In this document: one piece after another, positions 1-41,327 of the stretch | Layout of the letters: every line of letters begins with the position of its first letter | Position numbering within the stretch: the first letter of the stretch is position 1 | From: a virus | Direction: 5' to 3' (one strand) | DNA: 41,327 nt | IMG/VR virus record: IMGVR_UViG_3300032893_000129 | Location: 1 to 41,327 of that record | Notes under the pieces: generated by a model | Told to the model about the DNA's origin: nothing | Seen by the model: the letters and a program-made list of their open reading frames with translations, nothing else | Database searches by the model: none | Program-made: the position numbers and the translations under genes

Positions 1-126
1 TAAACGGCTCCTCGATGGATTATGTCGCCCTTATCCATTTTAAACTTTGGTTCCATGACAGCTCCTTTTCTGTGGCATCGAAGCCACGGTTAAATATAAA
101 CAAAAATGCTTGATAGCGACGGCTCG
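1..126. repeat. Terminal direct repeat, left copy
   Basis: Bases 1-126 (TAAACGGCTCCTCGATGG...GATAGCGACGGCTCG) read identical to 41202-41327. Confidence 0.95.
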
Positions 127-704
127 CTATCAAGCGCGGCTCTCTTCGGGCCTGCTCTGACTCCAAGCGCGTTGGTCGAATAGTCAGAGTGAAAACAGGT
201 CAAAAAGGCATGACCAATTTCCGTTCAAAGTCCCATTAAAACCGAGTTAAATATTTTCGGTTTAGGTGCCTTTTACGGTGCAATCGCTGCGCCAAAACCG
301 AAAATGCGCTGGCCCCTAATTGCACTTAGCGGCCTGGTTTCGTGCGCGTGAATCGAATAGCCCGCGTGCGTTGATACGTGCGAGTCTAGAGCTACTCTAT
401 CGGCTACTCTAGGTCGTGCCTCGAGTCGCCGGGTGCCTCGGTAGGTGCAAAAATCGCGCCAAAAATCAAGTAATTCTCAATACTTAGTTTGTTTAGGTTG
501 AGGCAATTTGGGGGAGTGACGAAAAACGGCGCCAGGGCCGCAAAATGCGTCACTTTCCACGGCGCAAAAATCGTCACTTTCAACAATTTCGCCGATTTAG
601 CGGTTTGGCCCGGTCGGTGCAATGGTGCCGAACGTCCCGGCGGCATGGTGCCAAAGGTACAAAAACTAACCTGCACGATCGAATCGTGCGAAGAGGAGAA
701 TCCC
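57..704. promoter_or_regulatory. Divergent non-coding control region between the leftward early operon and the rightward arm
   Basis: There is no credible ORF across 648 nt. Dyads lie at 108-135 (11-bp perfect stem), 155-162/182-189 and 239-245/257-263. Direct repeats are GCTACTCTA (391-399, 403-411), GTGCCTCG (416-423, 433-440) and CAAAA(A)T(G)CGTCACTTTC (541-557, 565-581). Confidence 0.6.
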
Positions 705-1010
705 ATGGATACGAATACAAAAACGGTCATTGACTACTCGAAAATGACCCCCGAGCAACTTGTCGCGGAACTTAAGCGTCGCGATGAAAAAGGCACACGC
801 AAAGGCACGCCAGTCGGCGAGGGCCTTAGCGTTCAGATAGGTGAAAAAGGTGGCATTAGCCTTTACGGTCTTCAGCGTATGCCCGTTACGCTGTATTTTA
901 ATCAATGGCAAAAACTCGCTGCATCAATCGGCGCGATTGTTGAGTTTGGCAACGCTCATCGCGACCAATTGAAACTCGAGAAGCCGGCCGTCGTTTCGAA
1001 GCCCGCCTAA
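705..1010 (+). CDS. Small protein with an N-terminal HeH/SAP-like motif; possible DNA-binding protein
   Basis: The ATG at 705 follows GAGGAGAA. The 'MTPEQLVAELKRRDEKG' segment resembles SAP/HeH motifs. A terminator follows. The long 489 start in the ORF track adds implausible Cys/Arg-rich sequence. Confidence 0.6.
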   Translation: MDTNTKTVIDYSKMTPEQLVAELKRRDEKGTRKGTPVGEGLSVQIGEKGGISLYGLQRMPVTLYFNQWQKLAASIGAIVEFGNAHRDQLKLEKPAVVSKPA

Positions 1011-1036
1011 ATAAACAACTCAAGTTTACTGCACCT

Positions 1037-1066
1037 AAACCCGATGTTAAACCCATCGGGTTTTTT
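1037..1066 (+). terminator. Rho-independent terminator
   Basis: Stem CCCGATG (1040-1046) pairs with CATCGGG (1054-1060) around a 7-nt loop, followed by T6 at 1061-1066. Confidence 0.75.
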
Positions 1067-1269
1067 GTTATCTAAGTGCGCGAAAATTGTCACTTCTGCC
1101 AAAAAGTTCAACACCATTTTAAAACTCGTATTCGCCTCGCCATTAAGTTTTTGATCTAACCCCTAACTTCGTCTCGTTTCGGCGCGCCGCGTCTCGCTAT
1201 TGGTCGCTAATGCGTTTTAAACCGCCATTGCAGTTGCGTTTCGAATCGCCGGTGCATTAGTTTGGGAAC

Positions 1270-1776
1270 ATGAGCGGCGGCGCACTACCTAAACCCAAAC
1301 TCCAAGACTTCGACATCGAAAGGTTCATCGCGTATATCACTCAGGGCGATCGTATTGCAGATGCGAGGGCCAAGTGTAATATAAGCCCGACTCAATTGGT
1401 ATATCTGTTAGCTGACTACCCTGAGTTTTCGGTTCGATTCCAACAAGCCCGCGCGCACGGTTTAGATGAGATGGCAGAGAATATCATGAGCATTGCTGAG
1501 AGCGAGATTGACGTTCGGCGCGCGGATGTGCGTATCAAGGCAACGCAATGGTATCTCTCCAAACGTCGCGCCGCGATTTATGGGGATCGCCTCGAGTTGG
1601 AGGTGCGAAACACCGTGGATATCGGCGGCGCGTTGAGCGAAGCGCTGAGTCGAGCTATTCCACAACGTATTGAAACTATTGAACTAAATCCAATACAGCT
1701 AACAGGTTCTAAACCTGTAGAAGTCGATGACGCGCCGAGTGAACAGGTAGAATCCTTTGACAGGCTTTTAGAGTAG
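1270..1776 (+). CDS. terS: Terminase small subunit (HTH type)
   Basis: N-terminal HTH-like segment 'CNISPTQLVYLLADYPEF', then 'RIKATQWYLSKRRAAIYGDR', which is typical of small-terminase families. It lies upstream of terL. Confidence 0.65.
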   Translation: MSGGALPKPKLQDFDIERFIAYITQGDRIADARAKCNISPTQLVYLLADYPEFSVRFQQARAHGLDEMAENIMSIAESEIDVRRADVRIKATQWYLSKRRAAIYGDRLELEVRNTVDIGGALSEALSRAIPQRIETIELNPIQLTGSKPVEVDDAPSEQVESFDRLLE

Positions 1777-2080
1777 GACTATAGGGCCGCGCGCGGGATA
1801 TAATTTCCCAAAAGACCGGGGTAGGGGTGGCGCGGGGGAGCCGCGCGCGCGAACCGAGCAATTCAGCGGTACCTTGAAAAGCTGCCAATGCTACTTCTGC
1901 GATTCCGCTACGCAATTAGCGAAGAGGCGCGCAAGGGTGAAAGTTCATTTCGGCTCAAAATTTTAAAATTTTTTCACGGCATTAATAACCCGCCGCGTTG
2001 TAAATTTTACAAACCGGTCGAATATATAGATCGAAAAAATTTTCTAGCGTTCTCGCATCCAAGCTGCCACCTTCGGAGAT

Positions 2081-4063
2081 ATGAAAACTTTTCTACTTGC
2101 TTTGATCTTCGCGGGTTTTCCTCTGGTCAGCAGCGCAATGCCGATCGACGCTCAAGCGCCGCCGAGCCTGGTTCTCGTGACCAACCCAAGCGACAATCCT
2201 GTCAACGTGACTGGTATAGTGACAGTGAATTCTCTGCCAAACAACACCGGCCAATTTCCAATGGCACAGTCAGTGAGTGTGGCGATTGCGAGTGATCAAT
2301 CGACTATCCCGATTTCCAATACGGACCTTCCACCGGGAGCCGCAACCGATGCAACTCTGTCTGCGATCAATGCGACGATTTCAAGCTTTCAGTCGGCTAA
2401 CCACACGGACTTAGTTCAAGTTGACACGGATCTTTTGGCAAACAATGCGATCGCAGCGGCGTTTCAGTCAGCAAATCACACTGACCTTTCCCAAGTGGAT
2501 ACTGATATTTTGGCCTTTAAGTCTGCGAATCATACTGATCTAAACCAAATTAATACGACTCTTGGAAGTCCTTTCCAAGCGGGAGGTTCAATTGGCAATG
2601 CGAGTTTTGGTATTTCGGGCACTCTCCCTGGCTTTGCTTCTACTCCTACTGTCAATCTTGGCACTATCGGTGCTGCTGCAACTGACGCAGAACTTGTTGC
2701 AATTAATGGAACATTGGGTTCACCAATGCAGAATTCGGGTGGATCGGTCACTGCGAATGCGGGGACGAACCTAAATACCTCAGCCTTAAATCTCGAGACA
2801 ACTCAGAGCAGCTTTAAGTCAGCAAATCACACGGACTTAAACCAAATCAATACGACGCTTGGAACTCCGATGCAAAACTCCGGCGGCTCAGTCACGGTCA
2901 ACGCCGGGACCAATCTCAATACGAGCGCGCTAAATCTTGAGACAACCCAGAGCGCTTTTAAGACTGCAAACCATAATGATTTTACGACTTTGTTTGGCGT
3001 ATTGCCGGCGTCTCTTGGTCAAAAAGCGATGGCCAATTCTTTTCCCATAGCTGTGGCAAGCGATCAATTGGCCGTTCTTACCAAGTATAATCCTGGCACG
3101 ATGGAACTCTTTGGAACATTGACTAGTTCGCAACGAGTTTTGCATATCAATCAACCCTTTTTCACGGGAACGTTAAGTAACTTAGTGACTCTTACCGTTG
3201 CGGGAACGGGTGCGGGATCCATCGCAAATGGGGAAGCAACGTTTTCAACCGGCACGACGACCGCTTCCAGTTCGAAAGGCGTATCTCTCACAAGTACACG
3301 GTATCAATCGGGCCAAGAGATATTTGCGATGTTCACCGCGGCGTTCACTTCGCCGGTAGCGGGTACCACGCAGAGAATTGGACTCTATGACGCCAACAAC
3401 GGTTTTTTCATTGGATATAGCGGGACCACGTTTGGAGTGTCCCTAAGGACCGGTGCCGCTGATACTACGGTTAACGCTGGAAGCTGGAACATCGATAATC
3501 TGACGGGAGCCGCCGGATCAAGGTTCACGAGTGCAGGTTCTCCCGTTGCCATTGATTTGACCAAACTCAATGTGTATCGCATTCGATTTGGTTGGCTTGG
3601 AGCTGCACCAATCTACTACGAAGTCTTGTCTCCCGATGGCGACTGGGTCACATTTCACGTTAATCGATATCCGAATAGCTCATCTCTTCCAAGCATTCAA
3701 AATCCAAACCTTCCGGTTACAGTTGAAGTTTCAAATGGTGCGACCACGAGCAACATTTCAATTGCGACGGCTTGCTGGGGAGCTGGTGGCGCTGGCGGCG
3801 AACTGGTTTGGAGTCCAAAGCACGTGGCGGGCGCAGCTACGACCGTGGTTAAATACAGTCCGGGCGTTCTTCATTCCGTGTGTCAAAATTCTCAAGCTGG
3901 AACGACAACGGTCTATGACAATACGGCCGGCAGCGGCACGATCATTGCCGCTATCAATACGGCGAGCTCGCCGTCTTGTCTGGTTTACGATGCTTATTTT
4001 TCAACGGGGCTTACGGTTGTGACGACGAATGCGAGCAACGACATTACCGTTAACTATCAGTGA
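2081..4063 (+). CDS. Secreted repeat protein (adhesin/fibre-like) with a C-terminal beta-sandwich-like region
   Basis: Sec-type N-terminus MKTFLLALIFAGFPLVSSA|MP. Repeated (F/K)SANHTDL..(V/I)(D/N)T units and two 48-aa repeats. Rich in NxT/S. The C-terminal roughly 350 aa is rich in predicted beta strand. Confidence 0.8.
   Translation: MKTFLLALIFAGFPLVSSAMPIDAQAPPSLVLVTNPSDNPVNVTGIVTVNSLPNNTGQFPMAQSVSVAIASDQSTIPISNTDLPPGAATDATLSAINATISSFQSANHTDLVQVDTDLLANNAIAAAFQSANHTDLSQVDTDILAFKSANHTDLNQINTTLGSPFQAGGSIGNASFGISGTLPGFASTPTVNLGTIGAAATDAELVAINGTLGSPMQNSGGSVTANAGTNLNTSALNLETTQSSFKSANHTDLNQINTTLGTPMQNSGGSVTVNAGTNLNTSALNLETTQSAFKTANHNDFTTLFGVLPASLGQKAMANSFPIAVASDQLAVLTKYNPGTMELFGTLTSSQRVLHINQPFFTGTLSNLVTLTVAGTGAGSIANGEATFSTGTTTASSSKGVSLTSTRYQSGQEIFAMFTAAFTSPVAGTTQRIGLYDANNGFFIGYSGTTFGVSLRTGAADTTVNAGSWNIDNLTGAAGSRFTSAGSPVAIDLTKLNVYRIRFGWLGAAPIYYEVLSPDGDWVTFHVNRYPNSSSLPSIQNPNLPVTVEVSNGATTSNISIATACWGAGGAGGELVWSPKHVAGAATTVVKYSPGVLHSVCQNSQAGTTTVYDNTAGSGTIIAAINTASSPSCLVYDAYFSTGLTVVTTNASNDITVNYQ
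2384..3001 (+). repeat. In-frame tandem repeats inside the 2081-4063 CDS
   Basis: There are five SANH(T/N)D units. The 48-codon units at 2714-2857 and 2858-3001 (LG(S/T)PMQNSGGSVT.NAGTNLNTSALNLETTQS.FK.ANH) differ mostly at third codon positions. Confidence 0.85.
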
Positions 4064-4071
4064 GGAAACAA

Positions 4072-4530
4072 ATGTCAGTAAAGATTTCGACTTTCACGAC
4101 CACGACAGATGGGACGACAGGGCTTGGAACGATTTCGGTGAAAATTCCAGGTACGTTTTCTGGCTTTGATTCAACTTCTGCTTCGTGGCAGGGAAGGCAG
4201 CTTTTGAAAGCAGGAGTTTGGCTAGAAAATCGTGCTGTTGGCGACATGATAAATGCTGCCTACATTAACGACACCGATGGCGTCATACCCGTGCCAGCTA
4301 GGGGAGCCTTTCCAAACTATCCGGTGATAAAAAATCTTCACGACGATTCCATGTCTAGCGCCAATCAAGGAATAACTTTTCCCCCGGAAAGCGAGGTTTT
4401 TAAGGTCGAGTTTCCAAGCAACATGAATGCGAAGGTGGCAGCGGGCCTTTATCTAGTTATCACCGCAAAAAAGGCAATTCCTGCTGTGGACACCGTGGTC
4501 GTTAATTTAGCAATGGATGATGCAACTTAG
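4072..4530 (+). CDS. Hypothetical beta-rich protein, partner of the secreted repeat protein
   Basis: The ATG at 4072 follows GAGGA (4062-4066). The track's GTG at 4060 overlaps the upstream stop. The stop abuts the terL ATG (TAGATG). Confidence 0.65.
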   Translation: MSVKISTFTTTTDGTTGLGTISVKIPGTFSGFDSTSASWQGRQLLKAGVWLENRAVGDMINAAYINDTDGVIPVPARGAFPNYPVIKNLHDDSMSSANQGITFPPESEVFKVEFPSNMNAKVAAGLYLVITAKKAIPAVDTVVVNLAMDDAT

Positions 4531-6093
4531 ATGGCAAGAATCGTCTCCCCTTATTCCCCACAAGACGAACAGCGGCTCATGGTAGAACTCTGGGATCCAA
4601 GGCTTAAAGACGACTTACGTAAATTTGTAATGTTCGCTTTCCCTTGGGGCAAGCGTGGAACTCCCCTTGAGAATTTCAAGGAGCCGCGGAAGTGGCAAAT
4701 CGAAGAGCTCGAGCGAATGACCGAGCACATTGCAAAGCAAAAGAATAAGATCGCACTTGGCATTCATCCAGAGATGTACAAGTCTGCCACGGCGTCAGGC
4801 CGCGGGGTGGGCAAGTCTGCTCTCACCGCTTGGCTAAATTGGTGGTTTCTCACCACCCGGCTTGGTGGAACGGCGATCACGACTGCCAACACCGAGGCGC
4901 AGCTTAAGTCTAGAACTTGGGCTGAAATGGGAAAGTGGCATACGCTCGCGATCAATTCCCATTGGTTTGAGAGGACTGCGCTCTCGCTCAATCCCGCGGA
5001 TTGGTTTAAGGAAGCTTTAGCAAAACTTAAAATCGATACGGGATATTACTATGGCCAAGCACAAATCTGGAATGAAGAATCTCCCGACAGTTTCGCAGGC
5101 GTCCACAACCAAGCTGGCGTCCTTCTCGTCATGGATGAGGGATCAGGCATTCCGGAGCCGATTTGGACGGTTAGCGAAGGTTTTTTTACCGAGCCGATTC
5201 TCGACAGATACCACTTTGCCTTTTCCAATCCCAGACGAAACACGGGAAGCTTTTTCGAGTGCTTTCATCGATACCGTAACTACTGGTACCGGCGTAATCT
5301 CGATTCAAGAACGGTCGAAGGGACTGACCATACGCTGCTTAACCAGATCGTAGAAAAATATGGGGAGGATTCCGATGAGGCCAGAATCGAAGTCAAGGGA
5401 GAATTTCCAAGGCAGGGAGATCGGCAGTTTATCAGTCGAGAACTTGCAGAAAATGCCCGTGTTCGTGAATTGGACCGATACGACGATCATGCAGCCCTTT
5501 GCATGGGGGTCGATCCCGCACGTTATGGTGATGATTCAACGGTTATCTGCTTTCGACGAGGACGGGACGCCCGTAGCATTCCGGCAATAAAGCTCAAAGG
5601 TGCCGACAACATGGTCGTCGCAAACAAATGTGCTGAGCTCATTACAAAGTACAATCCAGACGCAGTTTTCATCGATGGGGGTGCGGGTGCCGGCATCATC
5701 GATCGGCTCAAGGAGATGGGCTACAAGGTGCATGAGGTTTTGTTTGGTGGCGCGAGCGAAAGCCAAGAGTTTGCTGATCATAGGACTGAACTCTGGTCAA
5801 GGCTTCGCGAATGGCTCTCTGGCGGCATGATTCCGGCAGATCAGGAGCTCGTTGACGATTTGACCGGGCCTCAGTACAAATTCCAGGGGATTTCTGACAG
5901 ATTGAAACTCGAATCTAAGGAAGAAATGAAAAAACGCGGGCTCTCAAGTCCCGATAACGCGGATGCTTTGGCGGTGACGTTCCATGCCAAAGTCGCGCGC
6001 AAAGACTTGTTTGCAAGTAGAAGACGCGGTGACGGCCGCTCCTTTGGTCGGGAAAGAATCGCTCGCGATGTGGACTATGATGTTTTTGGTTGA
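4531..6093 (+). CDS. terL: Terminase large subunit
   Basis: Walker A 'SGRGVGKS', Walker B 'LLVMDEGSG', and the nuclease-domain motif 'GVDPARYGDDSTVICFRRG'. Confidence 0.92.
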   Translation: MARIVSPYSPQDEQRLMVELWDPRLKDDLRKFVMFAFPWGKRGTPLENFKEPRKWQIEELERMTEHIAKQKNKIALGIHPEMYKSATASGRGVGKSALTAWLNWWFLTTRLGGTAITTANTEAQLKSRTWAEMGKWHTLAINSHWFERTALSLNPADWFKEALAKLKIDTGYYYGQAQIWNEESPDSFAGVHNQAGVLLVMDEGSGIPEPIWTVSEGFFTEPILDRYHFAFSNPRRNTGSFFECFHRYRNYWYRRNLDSRTVEGTDHTLLNQIVEKYGEDSDEARIEVKGEFPRQGDRQFISRELAENARVRELDRYDDHAALCMGVDPARYGDDSTVICFRRGRDARSIPAIKLKGADNMVVANKCAELITKYNPDAVFIDGGAGAGIIDRLKEMGYKVHEVLFGGASESQEFADHRTELWSRLREWLSGGMIPADQELVDDLTGPQYKFQGISDRLKLESKEEMKKRGLSSPDNADALAVTFHAKVARKDLFASRRRGDGRSFGRERIARDVDYDVFG

Positions 6094-6129
6094 TCAGTTA
6101 AGCTAAAGTAGAGGAGCATTGCATTCAAT

Positions 6130-6375
6130 ATGGCAGCGATAACACCGGCGGCTCAAGGCGTGGCAGCATTCATGGGGATTCAACAGATCGCAAAACCCCC
6201 AGCACTTGAACAAGGTGGGCCCGCTCCCGGAGATGATCCAGCAGTCAAGCAAGCGATGATGCAAGCGGCGGAAGAGCAACGCCGGTCGCGCGGACTTGCC
6301 GCAAACATTCTAACCAGCGGTCAAGGATTGCTCGATACGCCCAACACCGCTCAACGCGTTTTATTGGGGTCTTAA
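6130..6375 (+). CDS. Small low-complexity protein (possible virion protein)
   Basis: Tightly packed between terL and the portal gene. It carries 'RRSRGLAANILTSGQGL....RVLLGS' at the C-terminus. Confidence 0.55.
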   Translation: MAAITPAAQGVAAFMGIQQIAKPPALEQGGPAPGDDPAVKQAMMQAAEEQRRSRGLAANILTSGQGLLDTPNTAQRVLLGS

Positions 6376-6624
6376 ATGGCAGGAATTTTTGGTGGACAGC
6401 AAAGAAGTCAAATGCCAGCGTATGCGATTCCAGTCACTCAAACGTTTAACGATTTGAACAAGCCTGGAACCGGTGCTCCGGGCACTCCGCCGGATCCGAA
6501 TCAAACGCAAAACCCAGCATCAAAACTTGGGAAGGCAGCTCAGATGCTCCAAAATCCTCCGCCTACTCTGCAAAACCCGGGACAGTCAAGCAAGGGCCTG
6601 GCGACCCGAATGCTGGGGTACTAG
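6376..6624 (+). CDS. Small Pro/Gln-rich protein
   Basis: Abuts its neighbours (TAAATG at 6373-6378; TAGATG at 6622-6627). The C-terminal '...ATRMLGY' echoes the previous ORF. Confidence 0.5.
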   Translation: MAGIFGGQQRSQMPAYAIPVTQTFNDLNKPGTGAPGTPPDPNQTQNPASKLGKAAQMLQNPPPTLQNPGQSSKGLATRMLGY

Positions 6625-8319
6625 ATGGAATTATCTCCGGTCACGACGCTTTCAAACGGGCCAGTTTCAAAAGCCAAAAACCTTGCCGACGTTGCTCAAG
6701 AAGTGCTCTTCGAATTTAGGCAAGTGTCAGGCGATCGCGGAAACTGGGAAGCGCATTGGACGGAAATTGCCGAGCGCATTTGGCCAAACCACAGCTTTCT
6801 TTTCATGGGATTTGGCATTCAGAAAACCGAAGGTGAAAAACGCACGTTTCGGCTCTTTGATTCGACCGCAGCGCTCGCTTTAAACCGGTTCGGTGCGATT
6901 CTTGATTCGCTTCTCACGCCTCGCAATCAGAAATGGCACAGGCTTAAGCCGGCCGACAAGATGCTTGAGAAAAATCATGAAGTCATGATGTGGTTTGAAG
7001 TGGTCAACGATCTACTTTTTAAGTATCGGTACGCACCACAGGCCAACTTTTCAAGTCAAAATCAGCTCGTTTACAAGTCTCTTGGGGCTTATGGCACAGG
7101 CGCCATGTTCATCGATTCCTTGGCCAATGAACCAGGACTTCGCTACAAAAATACTTTCCTAGGTGAGATGTACTTCTTTGAAAATCATCAAGGGATTGTC
7201 GATCGTGCGATTCGCCACTTCATGATGCGAGCTCGTCCCGCAGCACAACTCTGGGGAGATACGCTGCCCGATGAGATCAAGCAAGCGGCCATAAACTTCC
7301 CCAATAGACCCTATTATTTTCTTCATTGTGTCAAACCCCGCGGCGAGCCTGCTATCTTTAGAAAAGATTATAAGGGAATGCCGTATGCGTCTTACTACGT
7401 TTCGGTCACGGGAGCTGCTGGTCTTAGTGAGGGTGGCTATCGTACTTTCCCTTACGCTGTTCCTCGGTACGAACAGATGCCCCATGAAGTTTACGGTAGA
7501 TCACCTGCGATGGACGTCCTCCCGGCGATCAAGACGCTTAACGAGCAAAAGAAGGCGATGCTCAAACAGGCGCACCGGGTTATCGATCCAATCCTCTTGG
7601 TTCATGACGATGGCATCATTGACACGTTCTCGCTAAAGCCAGGCGCGATGAATGCCGGCGGCATTAGTGCCGATGGAAGGCCGCTTGTTCAACCTTTGCC
7701 GACTGGAAACGTTCAGCTTGGAAAGGAGATGATGGATGAGGAGCGAAACCTCATTAACGACGCTTTCCTTGTCTCCTTGTTCCAAATTCTCGTTCAAACT
7801 CCCGAGATGACGGCAACCGAGGCGCTTGAGCGTGCGCGTGAGAAGGGGATTCTCTTAAATCCCACTCTTGGCCGCCAACAATCTGAATATCTTGGCCCGA
7901 TGATCGATCGTGAGATCGACGTCCTCATGTCACAAAACTTGCTGCCACCGATGCCAAAGATTTTAAAGCAGGCGCAAGGTGAATACATCGCGGAATACGA
8001 TTCGCCACTCTCGCGCGCACAGCGGGCTGAGGAAGCCTCTGGCCTCATGCGAACGATTGAGTCAGCCCTTCAAATCGTGCAAGTGACTCAAAATCCGGAA
8101 CCGCTTGACTTTTTCAACTGGGATGTTGTTATCCCAGAAGTCGCAAGTATCAATGGAACCCCCCTAGCTTGGATGCGAACGCTTGATCAAGTGAAGATCA
8201 TTCGCAACCAGCGATCCCAAGATGCGCAGATAAACCAAGCGATCACGGCAGCACCGGGTGCAGCCGCGATGATCAAGGCAGGAGCCGCAGCTCAAAAAGC
8301 GGGCGGCGGAAACGGTTAG
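6625..8319 (+). CDS. Portal (head-tail connector) protein, podovirus type
   Basis: 564 aa, lying after terL. The N-terminal 'W..HWTEIAERIWP' resembles T7 gp8-type connector families. Confidence 0.8.
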   Translation: MELSPVTTLSNGPVSKAKNLADVAQEVLFEFRQVSGDRGNWEAHWTEIAERIWPNHSFLFMGFGIQKTEGEKRTFRLFDSTAALALNRFGAILDSLLTPRNQKWHRLKPADKMLEKNHEVMMWFEVVNDLLFKYRYAPQANFSSQNQLVYKSLGAYGTGAMFIDSLANEPGLRYKNTFLGEMYFFENHQGIVDRAIRHFMMRARPAAQLWGDTLPDEIKQAAINFPNRPYYFLHCVKPRGEPAIFRKDYKGMPYASYYVSVTGAAGLSEGGYRTFPYAVPRYEQMPHEVYGRSPAMDVLPAIKTLNEQKKAMLKQAHRVIDPILLVHDDGIIDTFSLKPGAMNAGGISADGRPLVQPLPTGNVQLGKEMMDEERNLINDAFLVSLFQILVQTPEMTATEALERAREKGILLNPTLGRQQSEYLGPMIDREIDVLMSQNLLPPMPKILKQAQGEYIAEYDSPLSRAQRAEEASGLMRTIESALQIVQVTQNPEPLDFFNWDVVIPEVASINGTPLAWMRTLDQVKIIRNQRSQDAQINQAITAAPGAAAMIKAGAAAQKAGGGNG

Positions 8320-8338
8320 CAGATAGCTAGGGGTTTGA

Positions 8339-8605
8339 TTGGATTTGAACATTAAAGAAAGACTTGATGGATTCTTCCGCCGGCGAAAGCTTGCGTATAT
8401 CAAGGTTTTCAATAAAGAGAACGTTTACACCGAGGAAGTTCTCGAAGATTTGGCAAAATTTTGCCGGGCCAACGATTCAGCATTTCATCCTGACTCGAGA
8501 GTGCACGCCGTCCTCGAGGGCCGCAGAGAAGTTTTTTTACGCATTCAATCCCACATAAATTTAACCACCGATCAGCTCTACAAGCTCTACGGTAAAGGAG
8601 ATTAG
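8339..8605 (+). CDS. Small conserved head-module protein
   Basis: TTG start with no in-frame ATG. It sits between the portal and scaffold genes. The 'EGRREVFLRI' segment resembles small proteins seen at this position in related head modules (from memory). Confidence 0.5.
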   Translation: MDLNIKERLDGFFRRRKLAYIKVFNKENVYTEEVLEDLAKFCRANDSAFHPDSRVHAVLEGRREVFLRIQSHINLTTDQLYKLYGKGD

Positions 8606-29037: not shown

Positions 29038-30000
29038 TTATCCTCCGAGCAATTCGCTCATTTGGTTTGCGATCTCGCCAGCGGCTTTGATTCGTCTCGA
29101 ATCAAGAAGCTGGGCATAGATCTTGGTTGTTTGTGTTGACTTGTGGTTCAACAATTCGCCGATCAAACCAAGGTCTGCGCCGTTTGACAAGCCCACCGTT
29201 GCAAAAGTTCGCCGGCAATCACGCATCCAAAGATCCGGACAGATGGCTTCTTGGCGAATCCGATCCCAAAGGCCATTGGGCATTGAGCATCCCATGAGTG
29301 AACCGTCCAAAGGCTTGCCAAGTTCCTTGATTTGCGCCATCAACATGGGTGGGAAGATCACTTGCTCGAACTCCCCCGTAATTTCCGTGCCTTTACCCTT
29401 GAAGGAAAGAATGCCGTAGCCATCTTGTTCTCTTAAATCACTCCACTGAGCGCGTTCAAGCGATCGCGGCCTAGCGCCGGTGAGCAAGAGCGCCAAGATA
29501 AACGTCGTTTTCCGCGGCCACCGGCTAGAATATTTGGCAATCAACGCGCCGATGCGTCGGAGCTCATCTGGGGTGGCATAGCGTTTTCGCTTCTTTTCGC
29601 GGAAGGCTTTGACGCGTTTGCACGGGTTATCGGCAATCCATTCCCGCTCCCAGGCGTGCTGAAACATACGGCTTAAAACCTCCAAGGCGCGATTTGCCTG
29701 AGTTGGGGTGCCTACGAGCCCAATATGCCAATCTCGCACAATGGCAGCCCTCATATCGTTTATATTGAATGATCCAAGTTCCGGTTCGATGAACACCTTG
29801 AAGCATCGTTCGACTTCGTACGACCAGCCGCTTTTTAAAAACCGATCGTTTGACCAATGCTCCGACCAGACGCGTTTAAAAAGCGCTGAAACGGTCATTG
29901 CTGCATTTTTAGGCACCGGACCGGTCAAAATACCCTCGAGCGTTCGAATCGTCGTGGCGACGGCTTTACGGCGGTTTAAATCGAATTGCATTTTTTCCAT
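29038..30000 (-). CDS. int: Tyrosine recombinase / phage integrase
   Basis: 'LLLTGARPRSL' (box I Arg), 'RDCRRTFAT', and 'LLNHKSTQTTKIYAQ' (His and the catalytic Tyr). Confidence 0.85.
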   Translation of the reverse strand: MEKMQFDLNRRKAVATTIRTLEGILTGPVPKNAAMTVSALFKRVWSEHWSNDRFLKSGWSYEVERCFKVFIEPELGSFNINDMRAAIVRDWHIGLVGTPTQANRALEVLSRMFQHAWEREWIADNPCKRVKAFREKKRKRYATPDELRRIGALIAKYSSRWPRKTTFILALLLTGARPRSLERAQWSDLREQDGYGILSFKGKGTEITGEFEQVIFPPMLMAQIKELGKPLDGSLMGCSMPNGLWDRIRQEAICPDLWMRDCRRTFATVGLSNGADLGLIGELLNHKSTQTTKIYAQLLDSRRIKAAGEIANQMSELLGG

Positions 30001-40754: not shown

Positions 40755-41257
40755 GGGATTCTCACCGGCATTAAAAGTCCGATTAACGTGTCCGAAACAG
40801 AAAGCCCATCGGTTATGAGAATGGCAGACCAAACTAGAGAATCATTTTTTCCCTTTTCCGGTGCTCTCGCAAAACAATTGCCCATTCTCAAGATTGGAAC
40901 ATACATGGGTTGCACGCCGATCTCGAATGATTCGTCTTCCGCTTCAAAGACGTAGGCCATTATTTCATCCATGTTGTTTCGGAACTTTACTCCGATTGGC
41001 CGATCTTTAAGTTTTTTGTAAGCAGAGAGATCGTGATGAATGTGGCCTTTGATGAGTTGATCTAGATTGGCGCATTCTCTAGTTAAGCAGAGCTCGCCAA
41101 AATCGTATCTTCCTTCTGTATGCTCCGCAATCCACTTGGAGAGTGCTTTGGGCATCAATGACGTTCGATCGTTTCGCACCAACCAATGGCCGTTTGTGGT
41201 GTAAACGGCTCCTCGATGGATTATGTCGCCCTTATCCATTTTAAACTTTGGTTCCAT
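40751..41257 (-). CDS. Mini beta-clamp (DnaN)-like protein, first gene of the leftward early operon
   Basis: AAGGAG lies 5 nt before the ATG at 41257. Four motifs occur in DnaN order: 'TTNGHWLV', 'EGRYDF', 'EIGVQPMYVPILRM' and a C-terminal 'LLMPVRIP'. Confidence 0.55.
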   Translation of the reverse strand: MEPKFKMDKGDIIHRGAVYTTNGHWLVRNDRTSLMPKALSKWIAEHTEGRYDFGELCLTRECANLDQLIKGHIHHDLSAYKKLKDRPIGVKFRNNMDEIMAYVFEAEDESFEIGVQPMYVPILRMGNCFARAPEKGKNDSLVWSAILITDGLSVSDTLIGLLMPVRIP

Positions 41258-41327
41258 GACAGCTCCTTTTCTGTGGCATCGAAGCCACGGTTAAATATAA
41301 ACAAAAATGCTTGATAGCGACGGCTCG
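41202..41327. repeat. Terminal direct repeat, right copy
   Basis: Identical to 1-126. It contains the start codon and first 18-19 codons of the minus-strand gene 40751-41257. Confidence 0.95.

Follow-up and report, generated by a model that had tools for sequence, protein, structure and literature searches.

A mobile gene pair for a signal-bearing lectin-type fibre protein and a small partner between the terminase genes of a temperate podovirus-like phage

The gene pair between terS and terL

The window analysed here is the whole stretch of 41,327 nucleotides (nt) of the IMG/VR virus record IMGVR_UViG_3300032893_000129. Between its genes for the small (terS) and the large (terL) terminase subunit lie two further genes, of which the first encodes a mosaic, fibre-like lectin protein, p660, and the second a small protein, p156 (Table 1). 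p660 starts with a putative signal peptide, and p156-family genes accompany signal-bearing fibre-like proteins in several unrelated phage backbones. As discussed below, the pair may represent a mobile accessory module whose large protein is sent to the host envelope.

The small terminase is genuine because it matches PF20901 above the cut-off and is located upstream of terL. Homologous open reading frames (ORFs) are present upstream of terL in 18 relatives, the identity to such ORFs of relatives being 26-51%. From the TAG stop codon of terS (1774-1776) to the ATG of terL, the interval 1777-4530 comprises 2,754 bp. Its leading stretch of 304 nt (1777-2080) contains only a frame-overlapping ORF of 135 amino acids (aa; 1888-2295) and a minus-strand ORF (1709-1915), both of which are most likely spurious judging from their overlaps.

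The N-terminus of p660, MKTFLLALIFAGFPLVSSA|MP, shows the n-h-c layout of a signal peptide with a basic n-region, an uncharged hydrophobic h-region and small residues at positions -3 and -1 (MK-TFLLALIFAGFPLV-SSA|M). Here and in the following, signal peptides were called with a simple n-h-c rule and by eye. The shaft-like region of p660 contains repeats at the protein level (four SANH[TN]D[LF] and two NLNTSALNLETTQS units), and no tandem repeat was found by TRF at the DNA level of the gene. The repeats are 75% identical to those of the protein P0120, and the shaft region is related to the N-terminal part of L086_484SP (E 4e-5). A word-indexed search returned 396 homologs of p660, which have the core in common. 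Among the best 120 of these, nearly all share only residues ~338-569 at about 50% identity while their flanks differ widely, and the lectin core is found at the start, in the middle or at the end of proteins of 386-1,151 aa. In an AlphaFold2 model based on a 76-sequence alignment the core forms a two-sheet beta-sandwich with pLDDT (predicted local distance difference test) values mostly above 90, and the rest of the protein is modelled with low confidence and with a few helices. Foldseek matched the core with a probability of 1.00 to legume lectins (pea lectin), Emp46/47, ERGIC-53, calreticulin, and the Hc-N domain of botulinum neurotoxin. Among viral structure models, the core matched those of phage proteins that are uncharacterised, of proteins from tailed viruses of haloarchaea, of a "virion structural protein" of a cyanophage, and of fibre-like proteins in BFVD. 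According to the model, the core of p660 has a concanavalin-A-type lectin/glucanase fold. Several charged core residues are invariant (E413, R432, D461, D472, R500, R502, E514, D519). The C-terminal B domain is encoded by free-standing genes of 172 and 193 aa in the loci L114 and L116, respectively (E 1e-12), and is fused to the C-terminus of a 453-aa protein in L109 (E 4e-15) and to the large protein of L168.

The gene of p156 follows that of p660 after 8 nt, and its TAG stop codon (4528-4530) directly abuts the ATG of terL. No terminator was found after p156, the one weak terminator-like match (4483-4499) being inside the coding sequence. Because the stop codon abuts the terL ATG and a terminator is absent, the pair is probably co-expressed with terL as late genes. 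While the word-indexed search revealed only four homologs of p156, an exhaustive profile search resulted in 174 representative clusters of mostly single-domain proteins of 145-175 aa. p156 and 83 family members did not match anything in Pfam, PHROGs (E < 0.01), NCBIfam, or the PDB sequences. The protein is predicted to be mostly beta with low confidence (AlphaFold model pLDDT 58.6), and Foldseek found only insignificant matches for this model, so that no fold was assigned. Seven of 159 family members carry signal peptides of their own. A narrow alignment retrieved no members of the family from IMG/VR or GTDB genomes, wider ones contained too much diversity for a pattern scan, and the p156-family query A4 returned only three IMG/VR loci. 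Judged from these comparisons, p156 appears to be a member of an undescribed family of about 150 aa and the signature partner of signal-bearing fibre-like proteins.

A first-pass annotation made from the sequence alone had already outlined this locus. Its coordinates were all correct (terS stop at 1776, terL ATG at 4531, gap of 2,754 bp), and its assignment of terS, which it had not regarded as certain, is supported by the family match and the position of the gene. The description of p660 as a 660-aa repeat protein with signal peptide agrees with our results, given that the n-h-c N-terminus is conserved across contexts and that the repeats exist at the protein level. It had further noted that the stop codon of a beta-rich partner abuts terL, which we could confirm for a protein of 152 aa starting at ATG 4072, the beta content being predicted at low confidence only. 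The structure prediction that it had proposed for both proteins yielded a confident lectin sandwich for the p660 core but a poor model for p156.

Recurrence of the gene pair in other phages

Genes of the p156 family were identified in 12 independent contexts, which are the window and the loci L086, L087, L090, L092, L109, L110, L111, L112, L114, L116, and L168. These contexts, as well as the relatives of the window, are largely metagenomic contigs. In all 12 contexts the p156-family gene is adjacent to a fibre-like gene or one gene away from it. In 10 of the 12, a mosaic fibre-like protein with an N-terminal Sec or lipoprotein signal is encoded one or two genes upstream (examples of the signals are MKRLALLFALLLVAPARA|D, MKWLLFLIALTAPASA|Q, MRFLLLLLIALWPRMALA|D, MKRVLALLALLASPALG|Q, and MKKFAALAALAILARLFALSAFA|G). 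By the n-h-c rule, signal-like N-termini are found in 52 of 2,659 ORFs (2.0%) across the fetched loci but in six of the 11 genes that directly precede one of the p156 family (Fisher test on these 11 genes, p = 1.8e-8; L168 was found afterwards). L116 even encodes three signal-bearing fibre-like proteins in a row. In L168 the large protein contains a lectin core and a B domain as in p660 (45% identity, aa 367-660), starts with a lipoprotein signal (…AILIS|C) with the lipobox LIS|C, and is directly followed by the p156-family gene (E 9e-43). The contexts without signal, L110 and L111, are also the most distant ones, and their p156 domains are fused to an N-terminal extension of about 80 aa.

The mature parts of the upstream proteins share shuffled modules (NLRNAAGTEIGTS…PTGTTTQP, LPxGAAT[DE]A[ST]L, and the ASDQ box) and differ in their C-terminal domains. 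In five loci the pair is part of a larger cassette (Table 1) with the order of a 256-284 aa protein, a helical protein of about 80 aa with a Pro/Ala-rich tail, the signal-bearing fibre protein, an optional B-domain gene, and the p156-family gene. The cassette proteins of 276-284 aa are 65-73% identical between otherwise unrelated phages. Homologs of the 276-aa and 80-aa cassette proteins were not found in the window, and no family could be assigned to them or to the other proteins of the cassette. The place of the module in the genome is variable (Table 1). Because it has a co-oriented position within a late operon in every context and across unrelated backbones, the module is mobile among phage backbones and appears to be expressed with the late genes, unlike an autonomous moron of the lambda type.

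The terS-terL interval in related phages

In all 18 relatives in which terS could be located, terS and terL are apart. The distance from the terS stop codon to terL varies between 138 and 2,073 nt and is never zero, and in the relatives whose ORFs were inspected a small ORF directly adjoins or overlaps the upstream end of terL, its identity varying between phages. The content of the gap differs between the relatives as well (Table 1), the window holding the largest cargo seen in this slot. Among the 84 terL-related loci that were examined first, from annotated phages and IMG/VR contigs, not one has a homolog of p660 or p156 near terL, and neither has the syntenic locus L118. As far as these comparisons tell, the gap is a variable cargo slot and the true cargo corresponds to 2081-4530. 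The cargo has about the same GC content as the genome. Its tetranucleotide usage is mildly atypical (rank 9 of 156 windows compared) and its GC content at third codon positions is 0.46-0.48 versus 0.50-0.61, which may partly reflect the amino-acid composition. The heptosyltransferase in the gap of L008 is possibly a conversion gene that modifies lipopolysaccharide (LPS). RpY1_026, which is annotated as "clamp-loader subunit", is a homolog of the terS of the window (30% identity) and is probably misannotated.

Two further loci show cargo of related kinds. In L108 (3739-14728), a podovirus with SU10-type portal and capsid, a 418-aa homolog of the lectin core, a methyltransferase, and an 819-aa beta-helix tailspike-like protein are encoded between terL and the portal gene, which is another case of fibre-type cargo inside a packaging module. 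In L085 (3605-12136), a phage-sized Logan contig (SRR33375187, 39.8 kb), the p660-core homolog P0010 (711 aa) directly follows glycosyltransferase, epimerase, and PIG-L-type genes, which again links the lectin core to glycan-modifying cargo.

The first-pass annotation had regarded the pair as a moron or cargo cassette in a very unusual position. The position is not unusual for this lineage. The pair can be regarded as accessory cargo, because it is absent from the relatives and recurs elsewhere, but it is not a classic autonomous moron, as there is no terminator and the stop codon of p156 abuts terL. The synteny comparison suggested at that time showed that both genes are indeed missing from the relatives, but an adjacency of terS and terL was not seen in them. 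The same annotation had assigned 1777-2080 to the insert as its own regulatory region, which is not borne out, since a G-tract element, an A/T tract, and a palindrome follow terS in cargo-free relatives, too. The GC-rich pair, the A/T tract, and the palindrome that it had listed are all present. The letters of the promoter-like TTGTAA..ATATAT are also there but were not scored by a consensus scan; they are a loose promoter match only and the weakest of the listed items.

When the sequences following terS in the window and in four relatives were aligned, the conserved element AAAAGACCGGGGTRGG became apparent. In the window, L001, L007, L008, and L014 there is a single exact copy each of the 14-mer AAGACCGGGGTRGG, always at most 75 nt from the terS stop codon, and degenerate versions with runs of G are found at the same place in most of the 18 relatives with located terS (e.g. 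CCGGGGTGGGGGTGGGGGTGGGG). GGGGTGGGGGTGGGG is a variant G-tract repeat with a G-quadruplex-like spacing. At 1787-1795 and 1841-1849, CCGCGCGCG forms a perfectly complementary pair, with four matches in the window compared to 1.1 expected (5 of 100 shuffled sequences reach four). The fold enclosed by the pair is not more stable than that of shuffled sequence (z = -0.53), and when the aligned post-terS elements were folded together, the covariation in favour of a shared secondary structure was weak (-0.64 kcal/mol), so that we do not claim an RNA structure. A/T tracts of at least 12 nt, most of them of the AAATTTT type, are located 68-302 nt past the terS stop codon in 13 of the 18 relatives. L013 has a palindrome comparable to that of the window, GTTGCGGT-T-ACCGCAAC, after its A/T tract, and weaker ones are present in L015 and L010. 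The palindrome of the window may be an operator or an activator site. A sigma-70 consensus scan of 1777-2080 reported no promoter, and no intrinsic terminator was found after terS.

Because the G-tract element, the A/T tract, and the palindrome are present in relatives without the cargo, all three pre-date the cargo. Similarly, any promoter in 1777-2080 would belong to the phage backbone because the region is kept in cargo-free relatives. Therefore, 1777-2080 is older than the cargo and not part of the insert, and it appears to be the lineage's own control region, which in the relatives stands before any other content of the gap. It is a reasonable guess that the post-terS element is a packaging site (pac or cos), or else a late-control region with a palindrome for the binding of a regulator. 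In any case the G-tracts and the A/T tract downstream of terS mark the cargo slot in a widespread clade of podoviruses including Ralstonia phages.

Other genes of the window

The first and last 126 nt of the window are identical (1-126 and 41202-41327), an assembler overlap that indicates a circularly closed assembly of about 41.2 kb, and the window is a complete genome. The phage is temperate and podovirus-like. It encodes a tyrosine integrase (29038-30000), a structural module in T7 order (Table 1), and an M15 endolysin. Among annotated phages, terL is most similar to that of MW202898 (68%), followed by those of the Ralstonia phages RpY1, DU_RP_II, and C22 (54%), and a megablast search with positions 1-8400 against annotated phages gave no matches. 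The closest genome-derived relative is L118 (JANQLS010000195.1, 42.5 kb), which has a terL of 66% identity and a syntenic structural module. L118 is from a Planctomycetota bin of a metagenome-assembled genome (MAG), and the MAG binning of this phage-sized contig would be the only basis for Planctomycetota as host, which we treat as unreliable. Rfam families and tRNAs were not found in the window. Just 3' of the ORF at 489-1010 there is a strong hairpin (1037-1063) resembling an intrinsic terminator, with a 10-bp stem followed by a run of T, which may form the border between the upstream unit and the packaging operon, 200 nt before terS.

Three genes after the tail fibre of the window also encode proteins with signal-type starts (Table 1). 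The third one, of 330 aa, contains the motif …HGGTGATSKAGAFDAL… ("GGTGAT…"), which we take to be typical of tail fibres. With the 254-aa and the 330-aa proteins, tblastn searches against cultured phages did not find anything useful. L118 encodes several large signal-bearing proteins, too. Judging from the N-termini, the late operons of the window contain at least four genes for fibre-like proteins with a signal, and exported fibre-like proteins would be a theme of this lineage.

Table 1. Features of the window, of its relatives, and of the other loci with p156-family genes
Feature	Locus	Position	Strand	Remarks
terS, Sf6-like small terminase	Window	1270-1776	+	PF20901 44.8 bits (cut-off 27); phrog_1482 E 1.5e-15
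G-tract / GC-rich element	Window	1786-1852	+	Just after terS; holds clade-conserved 14-mer AAGACCGGGGTAGG (1812-1825); bracketed by CGCGCGCGG / CCGCGCGCG inverted pair
14-mer AAGACCGGGGTRGG	L001	5418-5431		
14-mer AAGACCGGGGTRGG	L007	2957-2970		
14-mer AAGACCGGGGTRGG	L008	5931-5944		
14-mer AAGACCGGGGTRGG	L014	7782-7795		
Phased A/T tract AAAATTTTAAAATTTTTT	Window	1957-1974	+	Counterpart in most relatives
Palindrome TTGTAAA-T-TTTACAA	Window	1998-2012	+	Unique in window
p660 gene, mosaic fibre-like lectin protein, 660 aa	Window	2081-4063	+	ORF; core common to 396 homologs
Putative signal peptide, MKTFLLALIFAGFPLVSSA|M	Window	2081-2137	+	aa 1-19; n-h-c rule passed
Shaft-like region	Window	2264-3079	+	aa 62-333; repeat map, predicted helices
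ASDQ box 1	Window			aa 62-81
SANHTDL helical repeats and two NLNTSALNLETTQS units	Window			aa 83-312
ASDQ box 2	Window			aa 313-333
Predicted concanavalin-A / legume-lectin-type beta-sandwich core	Window	3092-3790	+	aa 338-570
C-terminal B domain, ...STGLTVVTTNASNDITVNYQ	Window	3818-4060	+	aa 580-660; low pLDDT
p156 gene, 152 aa	Window	4072-4530	+	ATG 4072; Shine-Dalgarno sequence GAGGA at 4062-4066
terL, large terminase	Window	4531-6093	+	phrog_2 E 4e-37; 68% identity to annotated MW202898 terL
T7-type portal	Window	6625-8319		PF12236 E 1e-103
Protease or scaffold-like protein, major capsid protein, tail tubular proteins A and B, internal virion proteins	Window			Structural module
Tail fibre with gp17-type N-terminal adaptor	Window	21349-22302		
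First gene after gp17-type fibre	Window	22292-23056		Signal-type start MRLNFLLLLLFPTFAFA|K; 254-aa protein
Second gene after gp17-type fibre	Window	23058-23489		Internal start gives MRLLVWLAVMLTPIAAFA|V
Third gene after gp17-type fibre	Window	23492-24484		Signal-type start MKAISTLLTFVFAFYTAWAFA|A; 330-aa protein
Gap content: HNH_3/NUMOD4 homing endonuclease	L002 (RpY1)	6293-6817		RpY1_027
Gap content: HNH_3/NUMOD4 homing endonuclease	L022	3205-3939		
Gap content: zinc-ribbon ORFs	L007, L008			
Gap content: cysteine-rich ORFs	L001			
Gap content: DUF6445-like protein	L007			Below Pfam cut-off
Gap content: family-9 glycosyltransferase (heptosyltransferase)	L008 (IMGVR_UViG_3300032333_000199)	6732-7736		PF01075 E 2e-14
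Gap content: three small ORFs	L118			
Larger cassette	L086	7410-10462		
Larger cassette	L087	7730-10519		
Larger cassette	L090	8261-10462		
Larger cassette	L092	4187-6668		
Larger cassette	L114	5780-8495		
Place of module	Window			Between terS and terL
Place of module	L086, L168			Between terL and portal
Place of module	L112			Just upstream of ORF resembling terS by N-terminus, then putative terL, then portal
Place of module	L087			After HK97-type capsid gene
Place of module	L090, L114			Ends same-strand structural genes; lysis-type genes (NlpC/P60, CHAP) nearby on other strand
Place of module	L110, L111, L116			Directly followed by lysis-type peptidase C92 gene (Pfam match in L116; judged from sequence in L110, L111)

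Possible roles of the module

The reading that we prefer, and to which we give an even chance of being right, takes 2081-4530 for a mobile accessory module which is expressed late and by which a fibre protein that binds glycans is exported to the envelope of the host, with p156 as the partner of this protein. The two-gene module would have landed in the variable cargo slot of the clade and would now belong to the late packaging operon, transcription proceeding from the conserved post-terS region via p660 and p156 on into terL. Sec would translocate p660 across the inner membrane, and the signal would be cleaved after SSA. Mature p660 with its fibre-type shaft and lectin domain could then bind glycans of the envelope, either within the periplasm or on the outside of an infected cell or a lysogen, and p156 might be its dedicated partner or chaperone. 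p156 itself does not have a signal peptide, and if p660 is exported the two proteins would therefore end up in different compartments. Occupation of surface glycans might lead to superinfection exclusion, protect the progeny from re-adsorption to debris, or change adhesion. Such a receptor-occupying role would fit the receptor-binding-type modules of p660, the L168 version with its lipoprotein signal, and the glycosyltransferase for LPS that L008 has in this slot, likewise a cell-surface function. The phage has its own T7-type tail fibre elsewhere, which we count for a role at the envelope, and it is temperate. The sequences and models show the gene content, the mobility, the conserved signal, the lectin fold, and the layout of the operon, and from these we infer export itself, the binding of glycans, the biological role, and an interaction between p660 and p156.

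Several observations weigh against this interpretation. The signal of p660 was called by a simple rule and by its conservation. The spacing between ATG 2081 and its Shine-Dalgarno sequence is poor (GGAG, 2 nt), and Met20 would be an alternative start in frame. Most homologs of the lectin core do not have a signal (it is present in four of the 125 proteins scanned, five p156-family proteins included), and p156 and most of its family members lack one as well. The core matches phrog_1645 (E 5e-28), which is labelled "virion structural protein". The signal-like N-termini of the fibre-module proteins of the window could mean that such N-termini are compatible with virion proteins in this lineage. 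In addition, the module is always co-oriented and tightly packed in a late structural or packaging operon, and nowhere does it have the appearance of a moron that is expressed from the prophage and brings along a promoter and a terminator. None of the PADLOC models, and thereby no defence or exclusion family, matched p660, p156, or the cassette proteins.

The main rival explanation, which takes up many of these points and which we consider rather unlikely, is that p660 is a head or tail fibre or a decoration protein of the virion and p156 an assembly chaperone or distal adhesin, the N-terminus of p660 either not being used for export or the protein joining the particles outside the cytoplasm. 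Next to the PHROG label and the missing signal of p156, the structural annotations of cyanomyophage homologs, the fibre-like BFVD matches, and the position of P0018, which takes the place of the tail fibre in a siphovirus, argue in this direction. The domain-shuffled mosaic architecture is typical of fibres, a small partner is encoded directly downstream, and the B domain is separate or fused depending on the phage. The module is always located in late structural operons, including a position after the capsid gene in L087 and positions just upstream of lysis-type peptidases in L110, L111, and L116. However, tailed-phage particles assemble in the cytoplasm, and the Sec-type signals in 10 of the 12 contexts together with the lipobox of L168 would take the protein out of this compartment. 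Moreover, p660 does not have a recognisable virion-attachment domain, no similarity to known Tfa, chaperone, or S74 families was seen, and the closest relatives of the phage do without both genes. The first-pass annotation had conceded that its view would fail if relatives had the two genes as conserved virion components without signal peptide; instead, the relatives do not have the genes and the signal is kept across contexts.

The concanavalin-A-like lectin/glucanase superfamily includes glycoside hydrolases and lyases. p660 could thus be an exported enzyme of egress or lysis, a glucanase or lyase that loosens capsule, exopolysaccharide, or cell-wall glycans for the release of the phage. This is improbable. 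The late expression and the export signal would suit an enzyme, as would the many invariant charged residues of the core and the neighbourhood of some distant p156-family genes to lysis-type genes (peptidase C92, NlpC/P60, and CHAP). But the best structural matches are non-enzymatic lectins and receptor-binding domains of toxins, although the list also includes the alpha-amylase entry 1dhk_B and the unassigned Cip1. Pfam did not reveal any glycosidase, lyase, Peptidase_S74, or other match in p660, and inspection by eye, which is not rigorous, did not show the E-x-D-x-x-E motif of the GH16 type. Even less probable, to a degree that we hardly reckon with it, is an annotation artefact, by which the signal would be a spurious 5' extension and p660 a cytoplasmic protein starting at Met20 (ATG 2138). 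The poor spacing of the Shine-Dalgarno sequence at ATG 2081 and the fact that the sequence starting around residue 18 is homologous to internal parts of other members of the family would agree with it. On the other hand, ATG 2138 does not have any Shine-Dalgarno sequence, and nine other contexts have independent signal-type N-termini on non-homologous regions, several of these starts being fixed by the overlap with the upstream stop codon. Compared to the background of 2%, a coincidence is very unlikely.

Extending the envelope interpretation, it could be possible, though we are doubtful, that several unrelated tailed-phage lineages share a mobile module that exports glycan-binding fibre-type proteins by Sec or lipoprotein signals along with a p156 partner, and that these proteins either coat host glycans, in which case recycled receptor-binding modules would bring about superinfection exclusion or debris protection at the level of glycans, or mature in the periplasm and join the particles only after lysis. 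With the same reservation, the module might be the phage-borne counterpart of the mosaic adhesive trimer (MAT) fibres of Bdellovibrio, and p660 and the three fibre-module proteins of the window would take the export route. Literature searches did not bring up any direct precedent, be it phage fibres with signal peptides or an exclusion through exported proteins that resemble receptor-binding ones. Nor did we find publications that describe the p156 family or cassettes of signal-bearing fibre genes within the late operons of phages. If export is true, phages would reuse receptor-binding modules in an unrecognised way, equipping them with export signals so that they reach the envelope of the host. 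This bears on superinfection exclusion and on the lysogenic conversion of surface properties. It also bears on annotation, because fibre-like genes from metagenomes are routinely called "tail fibre" or "virion structural protein". In addition, p156 defines a new family of about 150 aa that is tightly linked to signal-bearing fibre proteins.

Comparison with known systems

Like the lambda morons lom and bor, the pair consists of extra genes that are absent from close relatives, lie between conserved late genes of a temperate phage, and include a protein with a signal for the envelope. In contrast to them, the module has neither a terminator of its own nor a promoter attributable to the cargo and is read within the packaging operon. 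It is also far larger, comprises two genes, and is built from fibre modules instead of encoding a small outer-membrane protein. The lipoproteins Llp of T5 and Cor of phi80 and N15 are small and bind to a protein receptor, FhuA. p660 would resemble them as an exported phage protein of the envelope that, by analogy, would occupy the phage's own receptor, and the L168 member has a true lipobox. However, p660 is a lectin-type protein of 660 aa with a Sec signal without lipobox and with a partner gene, does not show any sequence similarity to Llp or Cor, and is encoded not beside the tail-fibre genes but 17 kb away from them.

The pairs Stf/Tfa of lambda, S/U of Mu, and gp37/gp38 of T4 have in common with p660 and p156 that a large mosaic fibre gene is followed by a partner of about 150 aa and that the domain boundary shifts by fusion and fission. 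They differ in that p156 is not homologous to Tfa or gp38, the large protein has an export signal and no recognisable N-terminus for virion attachment, and the pair is located in the packaging and not in the tail module in the window, L086, L112, and L168. The PHROG 1645 proteins of cyanomyophages (S-RIM, S-WAM, S-TIM5) share the concanavalin-A-like core, with 28-30% identity to the S-RIM proteins, but only this core (about 35% of p660), the matches covering aa 407-565. They are encoded at about 94-103 kb in genomes of about 170 kb, in which no other similarity was detected.

The closest described architectural analogue, compared by description, are the MAT fibres of Bdellovibrio, which have a signal peptide, a trimeric shaft resembling phage tail fibres, and swappable adhesive or lectin-type tips at the C-terminus, are displayed on the cell surface, and bind glycans (PMC10769870). 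Their genes are chromosomal in the predator bacterium, and the proteins have a conserved N-terminal domain of about 130 aa and, in one subfamily, an S74 chaperone-protease (PMC10769870). p660 has the putative signal peptide, the fibre shaft, and the lectin-type domain as well, but is encoded in a phage late operon together with the p156 partner, and neither a Pfam match to S74 nor a MAT-type N-terminal domain was detected in it. The module would belong to a known kind, that of phage accessory genes for envelope proteins, while the p156 family and the signal-bearing fibre cassettes seem to be new, and there is a real chance that they mark an undescribed class.

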